From NCBI GenBank assembly GCA_036397035.1, contig DASWJS010000021.1:788-64787 (forward strand): a DNA stretch of 64,000 nucleotides. The letters are read 5' to 3'. The position numbers and the translations under genes are program-made. A model generated the notes under the pieces. It worked only from the letters and a program-made list of their open reading frames with translations, did no database searches and was not told the DNA's origin. Position 1 is the first letter of the stretch. Each line of letters starts with the position of its first letter. The stretch is from Actinomycetota bacterium (lineage in GTDB: Bacteria; Actinomycetota; AC-67). Positions 32,225 through 43,989 of the stretch are shown piece after piece.

Positions 32225-33696
32225 GGCGCGCTCCACAGGGGCGGGTCGGGCGCCGGGCCGCGCGCGCGCTCGTAGGCCGCCGCGACCCGGAACAGGAGCG
32301 GCTCGGACAGCGGCGGGCCGAGGACCTGAAGGCCGACCGGCAGGCCGTCGTCGCTGAGACCGCACGGCACGCTGATCCCGGCGGCGCCCGCGAGGTTGGT
32401 CGGGATCGTGTACACGTCGCTGAGGTACATCGCGAGCGGGTCGCCGGTCTTCTCGCCCACCGCGAACGCCGTCGTCGGGCTCGTCGGGCCGACCAGCACG
32501 TCGAAGTCTGCATAGGCGCGCTCGAACTCGCGGATGACCAGCGTGCGGACCTGCTGGGCCTTGCCGTAGTAGGCGTCGTAGTAGCCGACCGACAGCGCGT
32601 AGGTGCCGAGCATGATGCGGCGCTTGACCTCGTCGCCGAAGCCTTCGGTGCGTGTGCGCGTATTGAGGTCGACGACGTCGGTCGCGTTCGCGGCGCGGTG
32701 GCCCTGGCGCACGCCGTCGTAGCGCGCGAGGTTGCTCGAGCACTCCGCCGGCGCGATCAGGTAGTAGGCGCTCAGCGCGTACTCGAACACCGGCAGGCTC
32801 ACCTCGCCGACGCGCGCGCCGGCGGCGGCGAGCGCGTCGATCGCCTCTCGCACGCGCGCCTTCACGCCCGGCTGCAAGCCGTCGCCGCCCATCCAGTCCG
32901 CGATCACGCCGACCCGCAGGCCCTCGATCCCCTCGCCCAGCGCCGCGCGGTAGTCGGGCACCGGATCGTCGATGCTCGTCGCGTCCATCGGGTCGTGGCC
33001 GGCGAAGACGCCGAGCAGCAGCGCCGCGTCCTCGGTGCTGCGCGCGATCGGGCCGACCTGGTCGAGGCTCGAGGCGAAGGCGATGATGCCGTAGCGGCTG
33101 ACGCGCCCGTAGGTCGGCTTCACGCCGACGACGCCGCACAGGCTCGCGGGCTGCCGGATCGATCCGCCGGTGTCGGTCCCGATGCCGAGCGGCGCCATCC
33201 CGGCCGCGACCGCCGCGACGCTTCCGCCGCTCGAGCCGCCGGCGACCCGCGTGAGGTCCCACGGGTTCAGGCTCGGTCCGAAGGCCGAGTTCTCCGTCGA
33301 GGAGCCCATCGCGAACTCGTCCAGGTTCGCCTTGCCGACGATCGGCAGCCCGGCCACGCGCAGGCGCTCGACCACGGTGCAGTCGTAGGGGGGCACGTAG
33401 TCCGCCAGGATCCTGCTGGCGGCCGTCGTGCGGATCCCGTCGGTGCACAGGATGTCCTTGATCGCGACCGGCGCCCCCGCGAGCGGGTGCAGGCGCTCGC
33501 CGCGCGCGACGCGGGCGTCCACCTCGCCGGCCGTCGCGCGGGCCAGCTCGGGCGTGACCGTGATGAACGCGTGCACCCGGTCGTCCAGCACGGCGATCCG
33601 GTCCAGGTGTGCCTCGGTCACCTCGCGCGCGCTCGCCTCCTTGGCGGCGATCATGCGCGCCAGCTCGGCCGCGCCGAGCCGCCACAGCTCGCTCAC
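32221..33696 (-). CDS. gatA: Glutamyl-tRNA(Gln) amidotransferase subunit A
   Basis: Amidase signature [32 protein letters not shown]. Confidence 0.95.
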
Positions 33697-33986
33697 GCCT
33701 CCTCCAGGATGCGCGGGACCCGGAAGCGCCCGTCCTCGACCTCGGGCCCGATGCCGAGCGCCTTGCCCTGCGGCAGGCTCGGCTTCACCTCGTCGGGCCG
33801 GAAGACGTTCGTCATCGGGATCGCATGCGCGGTCGGCGGCACGTCCTCGGTCGCGAGCGCGCTCACCTGGTCCGCGTGCTCCAGGATGCGCGAAAGCTGG
33901 GAGGTGAAGCGGTCCAGCTCGTCGTCGGTGAAGGCGAGCCGCGCGAGCTTCGCCACGTGCCGGACTTGGTCCTTGTCGATCGCCAT
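33693..33986 (-). CDS. gatC: Glutamyl-tRNA(Gln) amidotransferase subunit C
   Basis: 97 aa: [31 protein letters not shown].... Overlaps the gatA start. Confidence 0.9.
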
Positions 33987-34011
33987 GACGCCCGAGTCTA
34001 CCGGCGCGCGT

Positions 34012-36000
<1,989 letters not shown>

Positions 36001-36243
36001 CTACCGCGAGCGGGTGGACTTCTTCGCGCGCTTGGCGCCCGCCTTGGCTCGCGGCGCGGCGCCGCGGGACGCGGATCCCAGCGCGGACTCCAGCGCGCCG
36101 AGGTCCGCCCGCAGCGTCTCGAGGACCTCCTCCGCCGGAGCGAACTCGCGACGCACCGCGATCGAGTAGCGCTGGATCACCTGAAGGTCGGGCAGGCGCA
36201 CCCGCCTGCCCTGCGAGGAATCAGCGTTCGAAGACTCGGCCAC
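36001..36243 (-). CDS. Small hypothetical protein (80 aa), uncertain
   Basis: An ORF tightly packed between mnmA and ligA on the same strand. Basic C-terminus. No recognisable family. Confidence 0.3.
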   Translation of the reverse strand: MAESSNADSSQGRRVRLPDLQVIQRYSIAVRREFAPAEEVLETLRADLGALESALGSASRGAAPRAKAGAKRAKKSTRSR

Positions 36244-36258
36244 GGGGCGATTATAGGT

Positions 36259-37308
36259 TCACAGCGCGCGTTCGATGGTTGCGCCGCCGAGGACTTCGGC
36301 GCCGGCGTAGAACGCGACGAGCTGGCCGGGGGCGATGCCGCGTTCGGGGCGCTCGAAGCGCACGGTCGCACGGTCCTCGGTCGCATCCTCCAGCCGGGCG
36401 GGAATCGGCTCCCCGTGGGCGCGCACCTGGACGGCGTCGACGTCGCCGGGCGCCCCGGCAATCCAGGAAACCTCGGACGCCTCCAGCCCGCGGCGCGCGA
36501 GAAGCTCGCCCGGACCGATGACGATCCGGTTGGCCGGCGCGTCGACGTCCAGGACGTAGGCGCGCTCGGCGAGCGCCAGCCCGAGCCCGCGGCGCTGGCC
36601 GACGGTAAAGCGGTGGATGCCGTCGTGCTCGCCCAGGACGCGCCCGGACGGGTCGACGATCTCGCCGGGCCGCGCGCCGCCGAGCTGCTCCTGCACGAAC
36701 TCGCCCGCGTCGCCGCCGGGCACGAAGCAGATGTCGTAGGACTCGGGCTTGTTCGCGACCCGCAGGGACAGCTCGGCGGCGCGCGCGCGCGTCTCGGACT
36801 TGCGCTGCAGCCCCACGGGGAAGCGCGCGCGCGCGATCTGCTCGCCCGTGATGCGCGCCAAGACGTAGGACTGATCCTTGTCCGGATCGGCCGCGCGAAA
36901 CAGCCGCCCGTCGCGCGCGACCGCGTAGTGACCGGTGGCCAGCGCGTCGAAGCCCGTCGCCACCGCTCGGTCGAGCAGCGCACCGAACTTGATCTTCTCG
37001 TTGCAGCGCACGCACGGGTTCGGCGTGCGCCCGCTCGCGTAGGCGTCGACGAAGTCGCGCACGACGTGCTCGCCGAAGGCTTCTTTCATGTTCCAGACGT
37101 AGAACGGGATATCGAGCACCTGCGCCACCCGCCGCGCGTCGTCGGCGTCGGTCACCCCGCAGCAGCCGTGGACGCGCCCGTCGGCCGCCTCGCCGTGCAC
37201 GTCCGCCAGGCGCAGGTGCACGCCGGTCACCTCGTGTCCCTCCTCGACGAGCATCGCCGCCGCGACGCTGGAGTCCACGCCGCCGGACATCGCCGCCAGG
37301 ATCTTCAT
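36259..37308 (-). CDS. mnmA: tRNA-specific 2-thiouridylase
   Basis: PP-loop AAMSGGVDSSVAA, and catalytic cysteines in the CVRCN and CF contexts. Confidence 0.9.
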   Translation of the reverse strand: MKILAAMSGGVDSSVAAAMLVEEGHEVTGVHLRLADVHGEAADGRVHGCCGVTDADDARRVAQVLDIPFYVWNMKEAFGEHVVRDFVDAYASGRTPNPCVRCNEKIKFGALLDRAVATGFDALATGHYAVARDGRLFRAADPDKDQSYVLARITGEQIARARFPVGLQRKSETRARAAELSLRVANKPESYDICFVPGGDAGEFVQEQLGGARPGEIVDPSGRVLGEHDGIHRFTVGQRRGLGLALAERAYVLDVDAPANRIVIGPGELLARRGLEASEVSWIAGAPGDVDAVQVRAHGEPIPARLEDATEDRATVRFERPERGIAPGQLVAFYAGAEVLGGATIERAL

Positions 37309-38438
37309 CGGCGCAACCGCTCCACCGCCGACACGACCGCGTCGACTGCCGCGTCGACCTCCTCCTCGGTCGTGGTCACGCCGAGCGTCAGCCGCAGCAC
37401 GCCGCTCGGACGAAGGCCCATCGCCTGCAGCACGTGCGACGGCTCGGTCGCGCCGCTCGAACAGGCGGATCCGCTCGACGCGGCGACGCCGGCCCCGTCG
37501 AGCAGCAGCAGGAGCGGCTCGCTCTCGACGCCCTCGATCCCGACGTTGCAGTTGTTGGGCAAGCGCTCGGCGCCCGCGCCGTGAACGCGCAGCCCGTCGA
37601 TTCGGCCGAGCAGGCCCGCCTCGAGCCGGTCGCGCAACGCGCGCACGCGCGCGGCGGTCGCGGCCAACCGCTCGACCGTGAGCCGCACCGCCTCACCGAA
37701 GCCAGCGATCCCGGCGACGTTGTAGGTGCCCGAGCGGATGCCGCGCTCCTGTCCCCCGCCGTGGACGATCGGCTCCACGCCTACCCCGCGCCGGACGACG
37801 AGCGCGCCCACACCCTTTGGCCCGCCGAGCTTGTGCGCCGACAGCGCGATCAAGTCCGCGCGCGCAGCGTCCAGCGGAATCCACGGCAGCGCCTGCACCG
37901 CGTCCGTGTGGAAACGCGCGCCCGTCTCGTGCGCGATTTCGGCGACGCTCGTCACCGGCTGGATCGTCCCGACTTCGTTGTTGGCCGCCATGACCGACAC
38001 GACTCCCGTCGTGCCGTCGATCGCGTCCGCCAGCGCATCGAGATCCAGCACCCCGTCGCGATGCACGCCGACGATACGGACGACGAAGCCCTGCCGCCCG
38101 AGCCACGCCGCCGTGTCCAGCACGGCATGGTGCTCGATCGCGCTGACGACGATCCCATCGCGCCCCTGGCCCTTCTGCCGCCATGCCGCGCCTTGCAGTG
38201 CGAGGTTGTCGGCTTCGGTCCCGCCGGACGTGAAGATCACTTCCTCAGGGCGAGCCCCCGCCGCCGCGGCGACGTGCTCCCGCGCCTCCTCGATCGCCTT
38301 TCGAGCCTCGCGCGCACCCGCGTGGAGCGAGGACGCGTTGGCAAAGCGCTCGCCAAGGTAGGGCTCCATGGCCGCGCGCGCCTCCGGCAGCAGCGGGGTC
38401 GTCGCGGCGTGGTCGAGGTACAGGGTCCGGCGGGCCAT
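37305..38438 (-). CDS. iscS: Cysteine desulfurase (IscS/NifS family)
   Basis: Class V PLP fold (LYLDHAATTP, SAHKLGGPKGVGAL, catalytic SSGSACSS). Start taken as MARRTLYLDH (38438). Overlaps the mnmA start by 4 nt. Confidence 0.85.
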   Translation of the reverse strand: MARRTLYLDHAATTPLLPEARAAMEPYLGERFANASSLHAGAREARKAIEEAREHVAAAAGARPEEVIFTSGGTEADNLALQGAAWRQKGQGRDGIVVSAIEHHAVLDTAAWLGRQGFVVRIVGVHRDGVLDLDALADAIDGTTGVVSVMAANNEVGTIQPVTSVAEIAHETGARFHTDAVQALPWIPLDAARADLIALSAHKLGGPKGVGALVVRRGVGVEPIVHGGGQERGIRSGTYNVAGIAGFGEAVRLTVERLAATAARVRALRDRLEAGLLGRIDGLRVHGAGAERLPNNCNVGIEGVESEPLLLLLDGAGVAASSGSACSSGATEPSHVLQAMGLRPSGVLRLTLGVTTTEEEVDAAVDAVVSAVERLRR

Positions 38439-38472
38439 GGAAACGTCAGCGTAGCAACGCTCGTTCGTATTC

Positions 38473-38572
38473 GGTCCGCCGTGGGCCGATACGGCCCGCT
38501 TTGGTTCGAAGCGGTCCATCGTGGACTCATACGGTCCATCGTGGACTCATGCGGTCCGCCGTGGGTCGATGC
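38473..38572. repeat. Four 20-bp direct repeats (three in perfect tandem) in the upstream region of the iscS-mnmA operon
   Basis: ggtccgccgtgggccgatac (38473-38492), ggtccatcgtggactcatac (38513-38532), ggtccatcgtggactcatgc (38533-38552), ggtccgccgtgggtcgatgc (38553-38572). They lie in the non-coding gap between the 38584 gene stop and the iscS start. Confidence 0.6.
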
Positions 38573-38583
38573 AACCCGCTCGC

Positions 38584-41568
38584 TCAGAGCATGCCGAGCA
38601 GGTCGCCGGCGCTCGCGACGCCCTTGACGTCACTGCGACGCTGCGACCATCTCGAGGCGCCCGTCGAGGCGAGCCCCGCGGCCGACCCAAGGAGCACCTT
38701 CACCTCGCCGACGTCGCTCATGCCGCTCAAGTTCTCGCCGGGCGCTCCGATCGCGACGTCGCCGAAGCCGTCGCCGTTGAAGTCGCCGACGCCCAGGGCG
38801 GCCGCGAACACGTCCCCGTATTCGACCTGTCCGGGCACGCCCGTCGTGCCCTCGGTCCATCGCCGGCTTCCGATGCCGAGCGGCCCGCCGGCCGACCCGG
38901 GAAGCACGGTCAGCGCGCCGGCGTCGACTCGGGCGCCGAGGTTCTCGTGCGGGGCGCCGACGATCAGCTCGGCAAAGCCGTCGGCGTCCAGGTCGCGTGC
39001 CGCGACCGACGACCCGAAGCCGTCACCGCGCTCGGCGGTGTCGGGGATCTCGACGGAGTCCTGGGTCCAGAGCTGGCTGGACGCCGCGGTGATCCCCGCC
39101 GTCGAACCGAACAGCACGGCCACGGCGCCGGCGTCGGCGACGTCGCCCACGTCCTCGCCGGGGATGCCGATAACCAGGTCGCCGCGTGCGCCCGCGCCGA
39201 GGTTGCCGATCGCGAGCGAGGCGCCGAAGCCGTCGCCGGTCTCGGGATCGTCGGCGATGCCCTCGACGCCCTGGTGCCACACCTGGATCCCGTCGAGCGC
39301 CGGGCCTCCTACCCCGCCAAAAAGCGTGTAGACGCGGCCTGCGCGCGGCACGCCGGCGGCGGTGTCGCCGGGCGAGCCGATGGCAAGGTCGGCGAACGTG
39401 CCTCCGTTGAGGTCCCCCACGGCCAGCGCGGCCCCGAACAGGTCGCGTGGCTCGGCGCGGCCCGGGATGCCGGCTTGATTCTGCTGCAGGGTCCGGGCGC
39501 CGACGCCGGTGAGCCCGGCGGCCGTTCCGAACACGATCTGCACCTTGCCTGCGTCGGCCGTCGCGCCCAAGTCCTCACCGGGGATCCCGATCACCAGGTC
39601 GTCGAAGCCGTCGCCGTTGAGGTCGCCCGAGGCCAGGGTCGACCCGAAGCCGTCGCCCGTTTCGGCGTAGCCGGGCACGCCGCCGGCGCCTTCGGCGAAC
39701 CGCTGCGAGCCTGCTCCCGTCAGCCCGTCGGCCGAGCCGCGGATCACGTCCACCGCGCCCGCGTCGAGCGCGCCGTCCACGTCCTCCCGCGGGACGCCGA
39801 CGGCCAAGTCGGCGAAGCCGTCACCGTCGAAGTCGCCGGCCGCCAGCGCGCTTCCGAAGCCGTCGCCCGGCTCGCGCGCGTCGGGAAGCCCGCCCCAGCC
39901 CTCACGCCACCGGTCGTCGCCGGCGCCCGTCAGGCCGCCGGCCGATCCGTAGAGCACGTTGACGGCGCCGGCGTCCGCCGCGCCGTCGAAGTCCTCACCC
40001 GGCACGCCGATCGCGAGGTCGGCGAAGCCGTCGCCGTCGAAGTCGGCGCCTTGGGTCGCGGCGACGCACGCGCCGCACGACCGCGGCAGCGGCGACAGCA
40101 CCATCAGCGAGCCTGATGCGGGACGGGCGCGCTTTCCGGTCGACGGGCGCTTCGCCTCGATGGTCCATCGAGCAACGCCGCTCGGCACCGGGAGCCCGCC
40201 GGCGTCGGTCCCGTTCCAGCGCACCGCCATCCGCTCGCCGGTACCCCGGAACGTGCGCCACGGCGCGCCGCCGAGCGCGCGAATCCGCAGCGTCCATCGC
40301 ACGCGCTTGGAGAACTCGGCCTTGATCTTTCCGGCGTCGTCGACGCCGTCGCCGTCCGGCCGCAGGGTGTCGAGCGTCGTGCGCGGACGGTAGATCTTCG
40401 GGTGACCCCCGCCGTCGACCTGCTTGCGAATCGACGGGAGCAGGTCGTAGGTCTTCTGGCCCGGGCAGCTCGTCGCGTTGGCGTCGCGGTGGCCGTTGAT
40501 CCGCTTGAGCCGCACGCGGGTGCCCTCCGCGTACTTGTCGGTGCCGCTGCTCGCGATCATCGTCACCCGGCCGATCGGCGGGACGTGATGGACGTCGAGC
40601 TTCCAGCGCAGCAGCTTCACGAGCGCGGTGCGCGCCGCCTTCGGCGGCGCGACGGACTGGAACGTGCCCATCAGCGCGACGCCGGTCGTGTAAGTGTTGA
40701 AGCCGCCGGCGTGCGCGCCGATCACCGCCTGGTCGATCCCGCCGGCGCGTCCTTCGAACACCTGGCCGTAGCGATCGACCAGGAAGTTGTAGGCGATGTC
40801 GCTGTAGCCGCGACCTTTCGTGTGGTAGGCGTAGATCCCGCGCACGATCGAGGCGCTCTCGCTCTTGGAATACGAGTTGGTGCCGGCCGTGTGATGGACG
40901 AAGGACGCCCACAGCTCGGGCGCGATGCCGGGCCCCTTCGTGCGGAGGCTCTCGTCGGCGCCCCATTCCGCGCGCGTGATGATGCCGGGCTGGTTCGGCA
41001 TGGCCTCCGCGACCGGGGTGCGCGGCGTGAAGCCGCGCTTGATCGCGTCCCACGCCCGCTGGAACGGGTTCCGGTGATAGGCGTCGCCGTTGGTGTTGAA
41101 CGCGACGAGCCGCACGTCGCGGACCGCGCGATCGCCCGCCGCGACCCGCAGTTGCACGGTGTCGGCAAGGCCGACCCACAGCGGCAGCGTGAACGCGCCT
41201 GCTCTCATGGCGGGCTCGTCGTCGCCGTCCGGGCCTTCGTCTTCCTCGTAGACCATCGTCTTCCACAGCGACCAGCCGGCCGGCCCGTGCGCGCGCACCC
41301 GGATGTCGGCCGATTCGGCGTCCGCCGAGTCGAAGGACACCCCGATCAGGTTGGCCCGCCACGGCAGCGCGATCGTGCCGGCGGCGGCGCGGTCCGGCGC
41401 GATGCGCGCGCGGACACCGAGCGACGCGTCGAGCGTCTTCGGCGCCGGGGCCTCCGCGCGCACCGGGCCGGGCACGCCGAACGTCGACACGGCCACGACC
41501 GTAACGACGAAGATTCCGCGCCCTTTCCGCACTACCACTCCCCCCGGACTCGACAACGTACGGACCAT
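38584..41568 (-). CDS. Exported N-acetylmuramoyl-L-alanine amidase (Amidase_2/PGRP-like) fused to multiple FG-GAP repeats (994 aa)
   Basis: Signal peptide (an alternative GTG start at 41532 gives ...VAVSTFGVPGPVRA/EAP). Amidase_2 region (FVHHTAGTNSY..., IAYNFLVDRYG, HRDANATSCPG). C-terminal half has at least 8 repeats of the form DFDGDGFADLAIGVPGED...AGAV.VL.GSA.GL. (FG-GAP / integrin-alpha-like). Confidence 0.8.
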   Translation of the reverse strand: MVRTLSSPGGVVVRKGRGIFVVTVVAVSTFGVPGPVRAEAPAPKTLDASLGVRARIAPDRAAAGTIALPWRANLIGVSFDSADAESADIRVRAHGPAGWSLWKTMVYEEDEGPDGDDEPAMRAGAFTLPLWVGLADTVQLRVAAGDRAVRDVRLVAFNTNGDAYHRNPFQRAWDAIKRGFTPRTPVAEAMPNQPGIITRAEWGADESLRTKGPGIAPELWASFVHHTAGTNSYSKSESASIVRGIYAYHTKGRGYSDIAYNFLVDRYGQVFEGRAGGIDQAVIGAHAGGFNTYTTGVALMGTFQSVAPPKAARTALVKLLRWKLDVHHVPPIGRVTMIASSGTDKYAEGTRVRLKRINGHRDANATSCPGQKTYDLLPSIRKQVDGGGHPKIYRPRTTLDTLRPDGDGVDDAGKIKAEFSKRVRWTLRIRALGGAPWRTFRGTGERMAVRWNGTDAGGLPVPSGVARWTIEAKRPSTGKRARPASGSLMVLSPLPRSCGACVAATQGADFDGDGFADLAIGVPGEDFDGAADAGAVNVLYGSAGGLTGAGDDRWREGWGGLPDAREPGDGFGSALAAGDFDGDGFADLAVGVPREDVDGALDAGAVDVIRGSADGLTGAGSQRFAEGAGGVPGYAETGDGFGSTLASGDLNGDGFDDLVIGIPGEDLGATADAGKVQIVFGTAAGLTGVGARTLQQNQAGIPGRAEPRDLFGAALAVGDLNGGTFADLAIGSPGDTAAGVPRAGRVYTLFGGVGGPALDGIQVWHQGVEGIADDPETGDGFGASLAIGNLGAGARGDLVIGIPGEDVGDVADAGAVAVLFGSTAGITAASSQLWTQDSVEIPDTAERGDGFGSSVAARDLDADGFAELIVGAPHENLGARVDAGALTVLPGSAGGPLGIGSRRWTEGTTGVPGQVEYGDVFAAALGVGDFNGDGFGDVAIGAPGENLSGMSDVGEVKVLLGSAAGLASTGASRWSQRRSDVKGVASAGDLLGML

Positions 41569-41647: not shown

Positions 41648-43156
41648 TTAGCCGGAAGCGGAAGAGGTTCCTTCGCCTTCCCCGGATTCTTCCGCGGGGG
41701 CGGGGCCCGGAGTGTCCACTCTGTCCCAGTATCGGGACCACGGCCCGGGCGCGGCGCGCAGACGGCGCTCGATGGCGGGCGGGTCCGCCAGCACGACCTG
41801 CGTCGGCGGCGAGCCCAGCCGCGCGAGGTCCTCGTACAGCTCGATCAGCGGCGCGGGATCCTCCCCGGCGACGACGTGCACGAAGAGCCGGTCGGCGCCG
41901 TCGGTCCGGTCCAGCTCGACCTGCCAGTGGTCGGTGCGCTCGGACGCGGCGGCGCCGGCGTCGCGAAGGTCGATGATCGAGCCGCGCCCGTTCAACACCA
42001 CCTCGCGCCGCCACTCTCCCTGCCGGACGGTCGGCCCGACACGCGGGGCGGTGCGACCGCAGTTCGGGCAGGGCTCGGTGCTGAGCCCGCCGAGCGCGAG
42101 GTCGCCCGTGCGCCAGCGCGGCGCGCCGCCGCCCCTGAACACCAGCGGCGTGACGACCAGCTCGCCCGGCTCCTGCTCGCCGCGCCGCTCGCCCGTCTCC
42201 GGCGAGATCACCTCGACCACGTCGAGGTCCGAGTAGGTGTGCAGCCCGAAGGTCTCCTCGCGCCCGGCCGGGACCGAGCACTCCCCCCACAGCACGCGCC
42301 CTTCGGCGGGCCCGTAGACCGCCGCGATGTGCGCGTCGCGCGCGCCCGCCGACAGCAGGCCTTCGCCGAGCGCCGCTCGCTCCGGAGCCGTGAGCGAACG
42401 CCCCACGGCGAGCACCAGCTCGAGCTTCGAAATGTCGATGCCGTCTTCCATCGCGATTCGCGGGAAGGCCACCGCCTCGCTCGCGGGCAGCGCCACCACG
42501 GTCGCGCGCGACTCGTCGAGCGCCTGCATCGACGAGGCAAGGTCGCGGCGGCTGCCGCGGAAGTGGACCGCGTTCATGCCGACGCCGTGCGCCATGTAGT
42601 AGACGCCCCAGAAGTTCAGCGTCGGGCCGAACGGCACCAGGTTCAGCAGCCGGTCCTCGCGGCCGAGCCCGACCACCGCGGCCAGGCGCGCGCCCGCGCG
42701 CGCCAGCAGGTCCAAGTCGTCGCGCGTGTAGGCGACGGGCAGGCGCCCGCCCGGGCCGAGCGGCAGGTGCACGTGCACCGCGCGCGTCGCCGCCTCGATC
42801 TGCAGTTCCTTCGCCTCCTCGCCGCCGAGCAGGCTGACGACCAGCAGGCGCCGCAGCACCGACCAGTCGCTGAACCGCTTCACGCCTTCGCCGGTCCCGC
42901 GCAGGACGAGCGCGTTCGGTCCTTCGGGGTTGCGGCGCGGGTCCAGCACGTCGCGCCGCATCGACAGCGGCAGCGTGTCGAGCGCGTCCAGGCCCTTGAA
43001 CAGTCGCGCGTCGATGCCGGCCGATGCGAGCCGCGCGCGCACGAACGGCACGTGGCCGAGCGCCATCTGCAGCAACGTCTGGCGCAGCAGCACGTTCTGC
43101 TGCTTGCGCTGCTCGGCGATCGTGCGGTGATCCCAGGCGACGGCCATCGGCGCCAT
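41648..43156 (-). CDS. Adenylate-forming enzyme, phenylacetate-CoA ligase / F390 synthetase-like
   Basis: PaaK-family-like architecture: N-terminal region, then central YSDLDVVEVISPETGE and C-terminal regions. Start taken at MAPMAVAWDH (43156). Confidence 0.65.
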   Translation of the reverse strand: MAPMAVAWDHRTIAEQRKQQNVLLRQTLLQMALGHVPFVRARLASAGIDARLFKGLDALDTLPLSMRRDVLDPRRNPEGPNALVLRGTGEGVKRFSDWSVLRRLLVVSLLGGEEAKELQIEAATRAVHVHLPLGPGGRLPVAYTRDDLDLLARAGARLAAVVGLGREDRLLNLVPFGPTLNFWGVYYMAHGVGMNAVHFRGSRRDLASSMQALDESRATVVALPASEAVAFPRIAMEDGIDISKLELVLAVGRSLTAPERAALGEGLLSAGARDAHIAAVYGPAEGRVLWGECSVPAGREETFGLHTYSDLDVVEVISPETGERRGEQEPGELVVTPLVFRGGGAPRWRTGDLALGGLSTEPCPNCGRTAPRVGPTVRQGEWRREVVLNGRGSIIDLRDAGAAASERTDHWQVELDRTDGADRLFVHVVAGEDPAPLIELYEDLARLGSPPTQVVLADPPAIERRLRAAPGPWSRYWDRVDTPGPAPAEESGEGEGTSSASG

Positions 43157-43196
43157 GCTAACGGCCCGGGCGCGCGCTGGTAGGCTCCCCCGGCAC

Positions 43197-43985
43197 ATGA
43201 GCGATCCCGACGCCGTTCCCGCGCGCTCGCTGTCCTTCGACGCGGCCGAGCCGCTGCCGCTGACCGGCGAGCGCACCGCGCCCGGCGTTCCCGAAGAGAA
43301 CTACTGGTTCCAGCGTCACGTCGCCGGGTACCTGTTCGCGGCGGATCGCGTCGCCGGGACGCGCGTGCTCGACGCGGGGTGCGGCGAGGGCTACGGGACC
43401 GAGCTGCTGGCGGCGCGCGCGACGGCCGTCCATGCCCTGGACCTGGAGTGGCCCGTGGTCGCGCGCGCCCGGGCCCGCTACCCGCGGACGGGCTTCGGCG
43501 CCGGGAACCTCGTTGCCATGCCGTTCGCCGCGGGAACCTTCGACGCCGTCGTCTCGCTCCAGGTCATCGAGCACCTCCACACGCCGCAGGAGTTCCTCGC
43601 CGAGTGCAAACGCGTGCTGCGGCCGGGCGGGCTCATCCTCGTCTCGACGCCGAACCGCCTCACCTTCTCGCCCGAGGGCGTGCGCAACCCGTTCCACACC
43701 TTCGAGTTCGCGCCGGAGGAGCTGCACGCGACGATGGCTCGTCACTTCACCGGCATCGAGCTGCTCGGCACGTTCCACGGCCCGTCGATCCGCTCGCTCG
43801 AGCGGTTCATGCGCGTGTCGTTCCCCGAGCGGCTCATCCAGACGCCCGCCTACGAGTGGCCCGACTGGCTCCAGTCGCGCGTCGCGCGCGTCCGGCCGGG
43901 CGACTTCCGCGTCCGCGCGCGCGCGTTGGAGCGGAGCCTGGACCTCGTCGCCGTCGCGCGCGCGCCCTCGTCCCCGCGCGCATAG
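43197..43985 (+). CDS. SAM-dependent methyltransferase (class I)
   Basis: Motif I VLDAGCGEGYG, motif post-I, and VLRPGGLILVSTPN. First gene of the MGLP-like block. Confidence 0.7.
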   Translation: MSDPDAVPARSLSFDAAEPLPLTGERTAPGVPEENYWFQRHVAGYLFAADRVAGTRVLDAGCGEGYGTELLAARATAVHALDLEWPVVARARARYPRTGFGAGNLVAMPFAAGTFDAVVSLQVIEHLHTPQEFLAECKRVLRPGGLILVSTPNRLTFSPEGVRNPFHTFEFAPEELHATMARHFTGIELLGTFHGPSIRSLERFMRVSFPERLIQTPAYEWPDWLQSRVARVRPGDFRVRARALERSLDLVAVARAPSSPRA

Positions 43986-43989
43986 CGCG

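Follow-up and report, generated by a model that had tools for sequence, protein, structure and literature searches.

Gene and domain organization

The DNA analysed here is a 64,000-nucleotide stretch (the window) from an uncultured Actinomycetota bacterium of the GTDB lineage AC-67 (assembly GCA_036397035.1, contig DASWJS010000021.1, positions 788 to 64,787 of the forward strand). Its minus strand carries, at 38584..41568, an unbroken open reading frame (ORF) of 994 amino acids (aa) in the ORF list, whose product joins a peptidoglycan amidase domain to an FG-GAP propeller of the integrin-alpha type. Five parts follow one another in this protein: a putative Sec signal peptide, the Rv3811_N beta-sandwich, an Amidase_2/PGRP domain, an Ig-like domain of the FlgD_ig type, and the propeller (Table 1). 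An initial annotation of the locus had placed the zinc-amidase signature in the N-terminal half; Amidase_2 is indeed present there, but Rv3811_N precedes it and the Ig-like domain follows it. Residue numbers are those of the 994-aa ORF, except where "model residues" denotes the numbering of the AlphaFold2 (AF2) model.

The true gene is likelier to occupy 38584..41532, with a GTG start at 41532, than to begin at the ATG at 41568 that opens the longest ORF. The GTG is preceded, after a 5-nt spacer, by the Shine-Dalgarno-like sequence GGGGGGAG, it is the start called for an identical 982-aa protein in JGI metagenome data (P0001), and it gives a form with which the N-termini of orthologs line up in the alignment, whereas no ribosome-binding site was seen upstream of the ATG. 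The G+C content around the locus is ~0.69-0.76, and the gene matches its flanks, with no compositional break. A scan of the gene flanks for promoters and terminators found neither a sigma-70-like promoter nor a terminator on the minus strand, and an NCBIfam search with the 994-aa protein gave no family match. Neither the amidase half nor the propeller half has a paralog elsewhere in the 64-kb window.

Table 1. Features of the amidase-propeller gene, with positions in the window
Feature	Position	Strand	Basis or remark
Most likely coding sequence	38584..41532	-	982 aa, GTG start, TGA stop 38584..38586; codons verified
Shine-Dalgarno-like sequence GGGGGGAG	41538..41545	-	Read from sequence; 5-nt spacer to GTG 41532
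Putative Sec-type signal peptide VRKGRGIFVVTVVAVSTFGVPGPVRA, residues 13-38	41455..41532	-	By eye: basic n-region, hydrophobic core, V-R-A cleavage motif
Rv3811_N (PF27503) beta-sandwich with trailing helix, then Pro/Thr-rich linker	41029..41436	-	Precomputed PF27503 match on P0001
Amidase_2/PGRP/T7-lysozyme-type zinc N-acetylmuramoyl-L-alanine amidase domain, residues ~193-386	40411..40992	-	PF01510 and PGRP matches
Predicted Zn ligand H226	40891..40893	-	Motif alignment; codon verified
Predicted catalytic Tyr260	40789..40791	-	PGRP alignment; codon verified
Predicted Zn ligand H360	40489..40491	-	Motif alignment; codon verified
Thr366	40471..40473	-	Active-site set; codon verified
Predicted Zn ligand C368	40465..40467	-	Motif alignment; codon verified
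Ig-like beta-sandwich (FlgD_ig-type) spacer, residues ~392-490	40099..40395	-	AF2 strands; FlgD_ig matches of relatives
CxxC (CGAC), C498 and C501, junction of Ig-like domain and propeller	40066..40077	-	Codons verified
Blade 1 (70 aa), intact calcium loop DFDGDGFAD	39835..40044	-	
Blade 2, intact calcium loop DFDGDGFAD	39625..39834	-	
Blade 3, intact calcium loop DLNGDGFDD	39415..39624	-	
Blade 4, degenerate calcium loop DLNGGTFAD	39205..39414	-	AF2 pLDDT drop at model residues 724-729
Blade 5, degenerate calcium loop NLGAGARGD	38995..39204	-	Loop intact in orthologs
Blade 6, calcium loop DLDADGFAE	38785..38994	-	
Blade 7 (66 aa), calcium loop DFNGDGFGD, ends GDLLGML	38587..38784	-	

An Amidase_2 domain with a complete active site

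Residues 223-371 match the Pfam family Amidase_2 (PF01510) with 60.9 bits against a cut-off of 26 (expectation value (E) 2e-16). A phmmer search of PDB with the N-terminal half found PGRP3 as the closest solved structure (4z8i/4zxm, E 1e-21), together with many other PGRPs and T7 lysozyme (1e-5), so that the family to which the domain was initially assigned stands. In the alignment with PGRP3, the zinc motif FVHHTAG corresponds to VIHHSAG, and INGHRDANATSCPG corresponds to LYGHRDVGSTACPG; Y260, within the sequence IAYNFLV, aligns to IGYNFLV of PGRPs. The His/His/Cys zinc ligands, on whose presence the initial annotation had made its domain call depend, can thus be located at H226, H360 and C368. 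Because these motifs align and match the active-site set of PGRP-LB (H42, Y78, H152 and C160) and Y46 of T7 lysozyme (PMC8124813), we assign the three residues as ligands and Tyr260 as the catalytic tyrosine. H226 is kept in all 42 relatives compared, H360, C368 and Y260 are each kept in 41, and every position of the set, Thr366 included, is conserved in 41-42 of the 42.

The domain is established, by profile, structure and catalytic residues, as a zinc amidase of the Amidase_2 family with a complete active site, and it presumably has amidase activity. Catalytic PGRPs and T7 lysozyme (amphioxus PGRP3 4z8i, Drosophila PGRP-LB 7nsx and T7 lysozyme 1lba), which it matches with E values of 1e-21 to 1e-5, carry the same His/Tyr/His/Thr/Cys set. 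However, these are single-domain proteins of ~150-250 aa, whereas the amidase in the window is embedded in a 982-aa protein of four domains.

A conceivable alternative to an enzyme is a non-catalytic peptidoglycan sensor or adhesin, in which the PGRP-like domain would bind muropeptides and the propeller would adhere. PGRPs are, after all, the closest solved relatives, and annotations of FG-GAP proteins in, for instance, Nostoc assign them to adhesion (PMC9620832). Non-catalytic PGRPs, however, lack the zinc site (PMC8124813), and here both histidines, the cysteine and the tyrosine are kept across the 42 relatives. A membrane anchor and a signalling domain are also absent according to Pfam and the AF2 model, and we consider such a sensor very improbable.

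Predicted export signal and beta-sandwich domains

The amidase-propeller protein is predicted to be exported by the Sec system. Inspection of its N-terminal sequence found neither a lipobox cysteine nor a twin-arginine motif, and the orthologs share equivalent N-termini in this region, which in the AF2 model is a lone helix (model residues 3-18) with a low predicted local distance difference test (pLDDT) score. Removal of the signal peptide after export would leave a mature protein of ~950 aa in four parts.

The Rv3811_N domain comprises ~135 aa (residues ~45-180), and a separate AF2 model of it, with a pLDDT of 90.7, is a beta-sandwich plus a helix. Its assignment is based on the precomputed Pfam match of the identical protein P0001, in which, as in most relatives, PF27503 lies directly upstream of Amidase_2. 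Foldseek gave only generic jelly-roll matches for this domain (GOLD, subtilisin P-domain and CBM6; E ~3e-4, template modelling (TM) score <=0.5). The same N-terminal pair of PF27503 and PF01510 occurs in Ami3/Csp (Rv3811, MSMEG_6406), which is likewise actinobacterial and exported, a kinship recognized through the precomputed Pfam match. The C-terminal parts differ, in that the window protein has the Ig-like domain and a seven-bladed propeller. In Rv3811, this part carries wall-binding LGFP repeats, for which the window protein has no Pfam match.

The Ig-like domain opens with a PDGDGxxD motif that is conserved in the ortholog alignment. A Pfam scan of the domain itself gave no direct match, but the same position in relatives matches FlgD_ig (P0059, 2.3e-5; P0009, 0.012), and AF2 places its strands at model residues 380-478 with a pLDDT mostly >85. 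This domain would act as a spacer between amidase and propeller. At its junction with the propeller, the cysteines of the CxxC motif are invariant in five full-length orthologs and are the sole cysteines besides the zinc-ligand cysteine; they could bind a metal or be joined as a disulfide staple.

A propeller of seven FG-GAP repeats

The Pfam family FG-GAP (PF01839) matches the protein with 175.1 bits (E 1.6e-52), reported as six stretches. In-register alignment of residues 509-994 resolves seven units with a period of 70 aa (210 nt) and no insertions or deletions, not the "at least 8" that had first been counted, and exactly seven units are likewise found in 117 of 125 family members. The internal DNA repeats that had been noticed at the locus reflect this organization: they recur strictly every 210 nt between 38.6 and 40.1 kb, and in-register copies (family D3) lie at 38747, 38957, 39167, 39377, 39587, 39797 and 40007. 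Pairs of units are 34-61% identical in protein and 56-69% identical in DNA.

Stand-alone homologs of the propeller start at the first calcium loop, right after the signal peptide, and end with GDxFG. On the basis of these termini, we take the register to be calcium loop, GAP strand, two strands and FG strand, repeated seven times. The C-terminal GDLLGML is then probably the seventh FG strand, which would close the ring against blade 1, a closure that is read from the homolog termini and not from a model. Another candidate for an FG strand, the N-terminal GACVAATQGA as the eighth or first of these, was ruled out, since the stand-alone homologs have no such strand.

The strict DxDxDGxxD/E loop is kept in five of the seven blades (1, 2, 3, 6 and 7), and calcium binding by these loops is predicted. 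The calcium-binding DxDxDG sequences ascribed to the repeats in the initial annotation are therefore upheld for these five blades and not for blades 4 and 5, in which the loop is degenerate. A further motif, Q-x-[WF]-x-Q-[DG]..G[VI]xGxAE, is present in each blade throughout the family and is conserved as strongly as the FG, GAP and calcium motifs (among 880 repeats, 95% have Q58 and 93% have E68). It is situated in the ~15-20 residues by which the units exceed classical FG-GAP repeats, and is a candidate either for a ligand site present seven-fold or for a structural brace.

The AF2 model of the full-length protein reaches a pLDDT of 86.1, and the propeller mostly 80-95 across model residues 505-962. 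When this model was compared with PDB by Foldseek, the best 50 matches were all integrin-alpha propellers (probability 1.00, E 4e-15), with target-normalised TM scores of ~0.65-0.69 for the best integrin matches and 0.33-0.69 over the 50. Searches of PDB by sequence, namely phmmer with the propeller (E <=1) and a profile of the seven units (best 60 of 72 matches, E <=10), also returned integrin alpha chains only. Both Foldseek and the sequence profiles matched the alpha-5, alpha-V and alpha-4 propellers. Together with the Pfam score, these results confirm the FG-GAP/integrin-alpha-like class that had been proposed for the repeats.

Seven FG-GAP repeats with DxDxDGxxD loops are also the plan of the bacterial integrin-type propellers described earlier (Chouhan et al. 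2011, PMC3192720) and of the integrin alpha head. Unlike integrin alpha, however, the window protein has no beta-subunit partner, no thigh or calf legs and no membrane anchor.

Distribution of the fusion and its modular relatives

The whole architecture is shared with four metagenomic proteins (P0002-P0005) that have 48-52% identity to the window protein. Fusions of this kind had been thought rare, yet both Amidase_2 and FG-GAP are found in 19 of the best 120 protein clusters, and in 16 of the best 80 reference-genome loci, all of them from Streptomyces/Streptomycetales, the match extends to the end of the propeller. The Streptomyces proteins (e.g. WP_398959315.1 and WP_356281992.1) have the same plan of Rv3811_N, Amidase_2 and a seven-repeat FG-GAP region, and were automatically named "FG-GAP-like repeat-containing protein" or "N-acetylmuramoyl-L-alanine amidase" by NCBI. 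The architecture is thus not rare, and public databases already contain it under automatic annotation. These uncharacterised Streptomyces fusions differ from the window protein, to which they are 31-41% identical, in that the Ig-like spacer is missing and blade length varies irregularly between 50 and 70 aa.

Taken separately, both halves of the window protein are much closer to unfused proteins than to the Streptomyces fusions. After the four orthologs, the nearest relatives of the N-terminal (amidase) half are propeller-less proteins (350-390 bits, 46-51% identity), compared with 117-201 bits for the Streptomyces fusion proteins. Similarly, the nearest relatives of the propeller half after the orthologs are stand-alone propellers (290-340 bits, 45-51% identity), compared with 73-142 bits. 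These similarities, and the differences in spacer and blades, suggest that window-type and Streptomyces fusions are probably independent in origin, in which case the amidase-propeller fusion arose at least twice.

In the closest relatives of the N-terminal half, the C-terminal module is SLH, a set of three CWB2 repeats, or FlgD_ig/Big_13/CHU_C instead of the propeller. Metagenome-assembled genomes of Thermoleophilia, Gaiellaceae, Acidimicrobiales and Frankiaceae are the ones in which relatives of this half rank closest. Because the propeller fills the slot of the SLH/CWB2 anchors in these relatives, it may well be a targeting or retention module.

A search with the propeller only found 7889 proteins at E <=1e-10. 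The best 120 matches (P0121-P0240) are mostly secreted stand-alone propellers of ~500-560 aa, such as an Enhygromyxa salina "putative integrin-like protein", and also include fusions to Peptidase_M23 (e.g. in Kribbella), CAP, astacin, leishmanolysin and PPC domains. Alone or fused, the related propellers have 40-51% identity to that of the window. In the Kribbella protein WP_328989474.1, the propeller is closely related to ours with ~41-44% identity over 98% of the length, but the order is reversed, with the propeller N-terminal and M23 C-terminal, and the M23 domain cuts peptide cross-bridges and not the N-acetylmuramoyl-L-alanine (MurNAc-L-Ala) bond. The 2011 description of bacterial integrin-type propellers left their function open and suggested the cytoplasm as their location (PMC3192720). 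A cytoplasmic location is disfavoured here, because among P0121-P0240 (e.g. P0129, P0121 and P0161) stand-alone propellers start right behind a signal peptide and others are joined to enzymes that are secreted.

Genomic context and proposed function

In the window, as in L001, L082/L083, L084 and L085, the genes are ordered as a divergent methyltransferase gene, a gene for a PaaK-like enzyme of ~500 aa, the amidase/FG-GAP gene, iscS and mnmA. The order PaaK-like ligase/amidase/iscS/mnmA is kept in the four orthologous loci at ~50% identity. iscS encodes a NifS/IscS-type cysteine desulfurase, and ligA and gatCAB are located further downstream. The neighbourhood is thus a core, vertically inherited one, and by the annotation of the neighbours no immunity, phage, mobile-element, toxin or specialised-secretion gene adjoins the amidase gene.

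On balance, we lean towards the view that this protein is a Sec-exported peptidoglycan hydrolase belonging to the Rv3811/Ami3-like actinobacterial Amidase_2 enzymes that acts on the wall of the cell producing it, with the propeller serving for targeting or retention. In such an enzyme, the zinc amidase (H226, H360 and C368, assisted by Tyr260) would hydrolyse the MurNAc-L-Ala amide bond of the stem peptide in the producer's wall, in the course of remodelling, turnover or daughter-cell separation. The propeller, with its seven blades of the integrin-alpha fold and its calcium loops on one face, would form a closed ring. The amidase half of the protein is basic (64 K+R and 44 D+E) and the propeller is acidic (72 D+E and 23 K+R), a division that is compatible with an acidic, calcium-loaded module linked to a catalytic half that is basic and binds the wall. 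By binding a specific ligand in the wall or envelope, the propeller could keep the catalytic half in place. A precedent is mycobacterial Ami3 of the Rv3811 family, a cell-wall amidase that is toxic to its producer in excess and is degraded by HtrA (PMC12735335; PMC3987819). The window protein is probably an ordinary modular enzyme of wall remodelling, that is, a housekeeping autolysin. What the data establish is which domains and catalytic residues are present, how many repeats there are, how they fold, the synteny and the modular make-up of the family; export, amidase activity, action on the self wall, and a ligand and targeting role for the propeller are predictions.

The protein could instead be a secreted antibacterial or predatory lysin whose propeller recognises a ligand on the surface of target cells. 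It is predicted to be exported and its catalytic site is intact, as such a lysin would require, and multivalent propellers can be lectins, as is seen in Psathyrella velutina lectin (PVL) with its six N-acetylglucosamine (GlcNAc) sites (PMC4456360). Fusions of related propellers to further secreted hydrolases exist, and such propellers also occur in the predatory myxobacterium Enhygromyxa. However, the gene lies in a core block beside iscS-mnmA in four loci, with no immunity gene, toxin-secretion marker or mobile context, equally similar relatives carry SLH/CWB2 domains, which are anchors to the producer's own wall, and the target of the mycobacterial homolog is the self wall. We therefore regard a weapon as quite unlikely. 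The initial annotation had offered a targeted autolysin and a predatory or competitive lytic enzyme side by side; of these, the autolysin appears to fit better, because the vertically conserved core neighbourhood is free of immunity and secretion genes.

An autolysin might also use its propeller in another manner, as a regulatory or protein-docking platform that binds a partner (a divisome component, inhibitor or protease), or that blocks the active site until it is freed by calcium or by such a partner. The closest solved relatives, integrin alpha chains that dock a beta subunit, use the fold for protein-protein contacts, and a basic amidase half joined to a strongly acidic propeller would allow intramolecular docking. 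Peptidoglycan amidases generally need tight control, which for Ami3 is exerted by HtrA proteolysis, and the propeller also accompanies enzymes that do not act on the wall. On the other hand, the only conserved gene alongside that might encode a partner is that of the cytoplasmic-looking PaaK-like ligase, the AF2 model has a predicted TM score of 0.63, and the SLH/CWB2 domains at the same position in relatives indicate anchoring. In view of these points, a docking platform seems unlikely.

Several observations weigh against an autolysin that is targeted by its propeller. The signal peptide and its cleavage site were judged by eye, not computed. The calcium loop is degenerate in two of the seven blades, and AF2 confidence is low both at the junction of Ig-like domain and propeller, including the CxxC motif, and in the last 17 residues, which contain the ring-closing strand. 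The partners of related propellers include proteases and CAP, and so show no specificity for peptidoglycan enzymes. Bacterial integrin-type propellers have no known ligand (PMC3192720), and the repeat sequence profiles detected only integrins among solved structures, and not the PVL lectin. Our literature search also turned up neither a paper that describes a fusion of Amidase_2 with FG-GAP nor an assay of the architecture.

A broader and more tentative proposal concerns the propellers themselves. PVL is an integrin-like seven-bladed propeller with calcium sites that binds terminal GlcNAc in a multivalent manner (PMC4456360). The likeness is an analogy only, because sequence kinship was not detected and PVL is absent among the best 50 Foldseek matches, but it provides a plausible model for the binding of wall glycans. 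Bacterial integrin-type FG-GAP propellers could be calcium-dependent, multivalent modules for binding envelope components or glycans, in which the Q-x-[WF]-x-Q...AE motifs form seven ligand sites, and which peptidoglycan hydrolases recruited independently several times. Under this proposal, which we put forward with considerable doubt, the separate recruitments may have been by Amidase_2 in the clade of the window protein, by Amidase_2 in Streptomyces, and by M23 in Kribbella and others. If it is true, the FG-GAP propeller represents a new class of cell-wall-targeting domain.

Each of the component families was known already, and the outcome will not surprise a specialist. The additions made here are the exact dissection of the protein, the correction to seven repeats, their register, the multiple origins that the fusion probably has, and a propeller family that is secreted and has repeatedly been combined with extracellular hydrolases, two unrelated classes of peptidoglycan hydrolase among them. 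The window thus offers one well-dissected example of an architecture that is uncharacterised yet common in databases. It also gives a clue to the abundant bacterial integrin-type propellers, as their signal peptides, their fusions to hydrolases and the slot shared with SLH/CWB2 point to an extracellular targeting role.

Other features of the neighbourhood

The spacer between the amidase stop codon and iscS (38472..38572) contains ~5 copies of a 20-nt tandem repeat, and a 30-nt element is present at both of its ends (family D7). The repeat has no Rfam match, the 20-nt motif does not occur above chance elsewhere in the window, and the RNA fold of the spacer has a z-score of -2.5. The initial annotation had remarked that the amidase gene sits next to a repeat-containing iscS promoter. 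The repeat is indeed there, but we found no evidence for a functional link between it and the amidase gene, and it is absent from the orthologous loci. Since the orthologous amidase/iscS spacers are just 38-41 nt long, the repeat is an insertion or expansion specific to the window.

An IscS protein of 404 aa, with its start at ATG 38519 inside the tandem repeat, results from the JGI call as well as from the longest ORF. IscS orthologs are 378-381 aa in length, and matches to the NifS/IscS profiles begin at residues 3-7 of a 377-aa form that starts at 38438 (MARRTLYLDH...). From these comparisons, the shorter 377-aa protein with its start at 38438 appears more likely.

The PaaK-like adenylate-forming enzyme, encoded directly upstream of the amidase gene on the same strand (41648..43276, minus strand), is present in all four orthologous loci at a length of ~500-540 aa. 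Its score of 81.6 bits against a cut-off of 700 indicates a distant relation to phenylacetate-CoA ligase PaaK, and its Pfam AMP-binding match is below threshold. Upstream of the locus, the relatives have a conserved block (43155..45522 of the window and the upstream genes of L001/L082) that encodes a GH57 glycoside hydrolase (with BE_C), an S-adenosylmethionine-dependent methyltransferase, a GT4 glycosyltransferase and DUF3152. This GH57/GT4/DUF3152 block may be a cluster for alpha-glucan metabolism.

Long ORFs are also found on the opposite strand, for example one of 1628 aa at 32698..37584 (plus strand) across mnmA and iscS, and one of 531 aa at 38521..40116 (plus strand) across the propeller. 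These ORFs have no family support and are the usual artefacts of high G+C content; the 531-aa ORF is periodic solely as a mirror of the propeller repeats.

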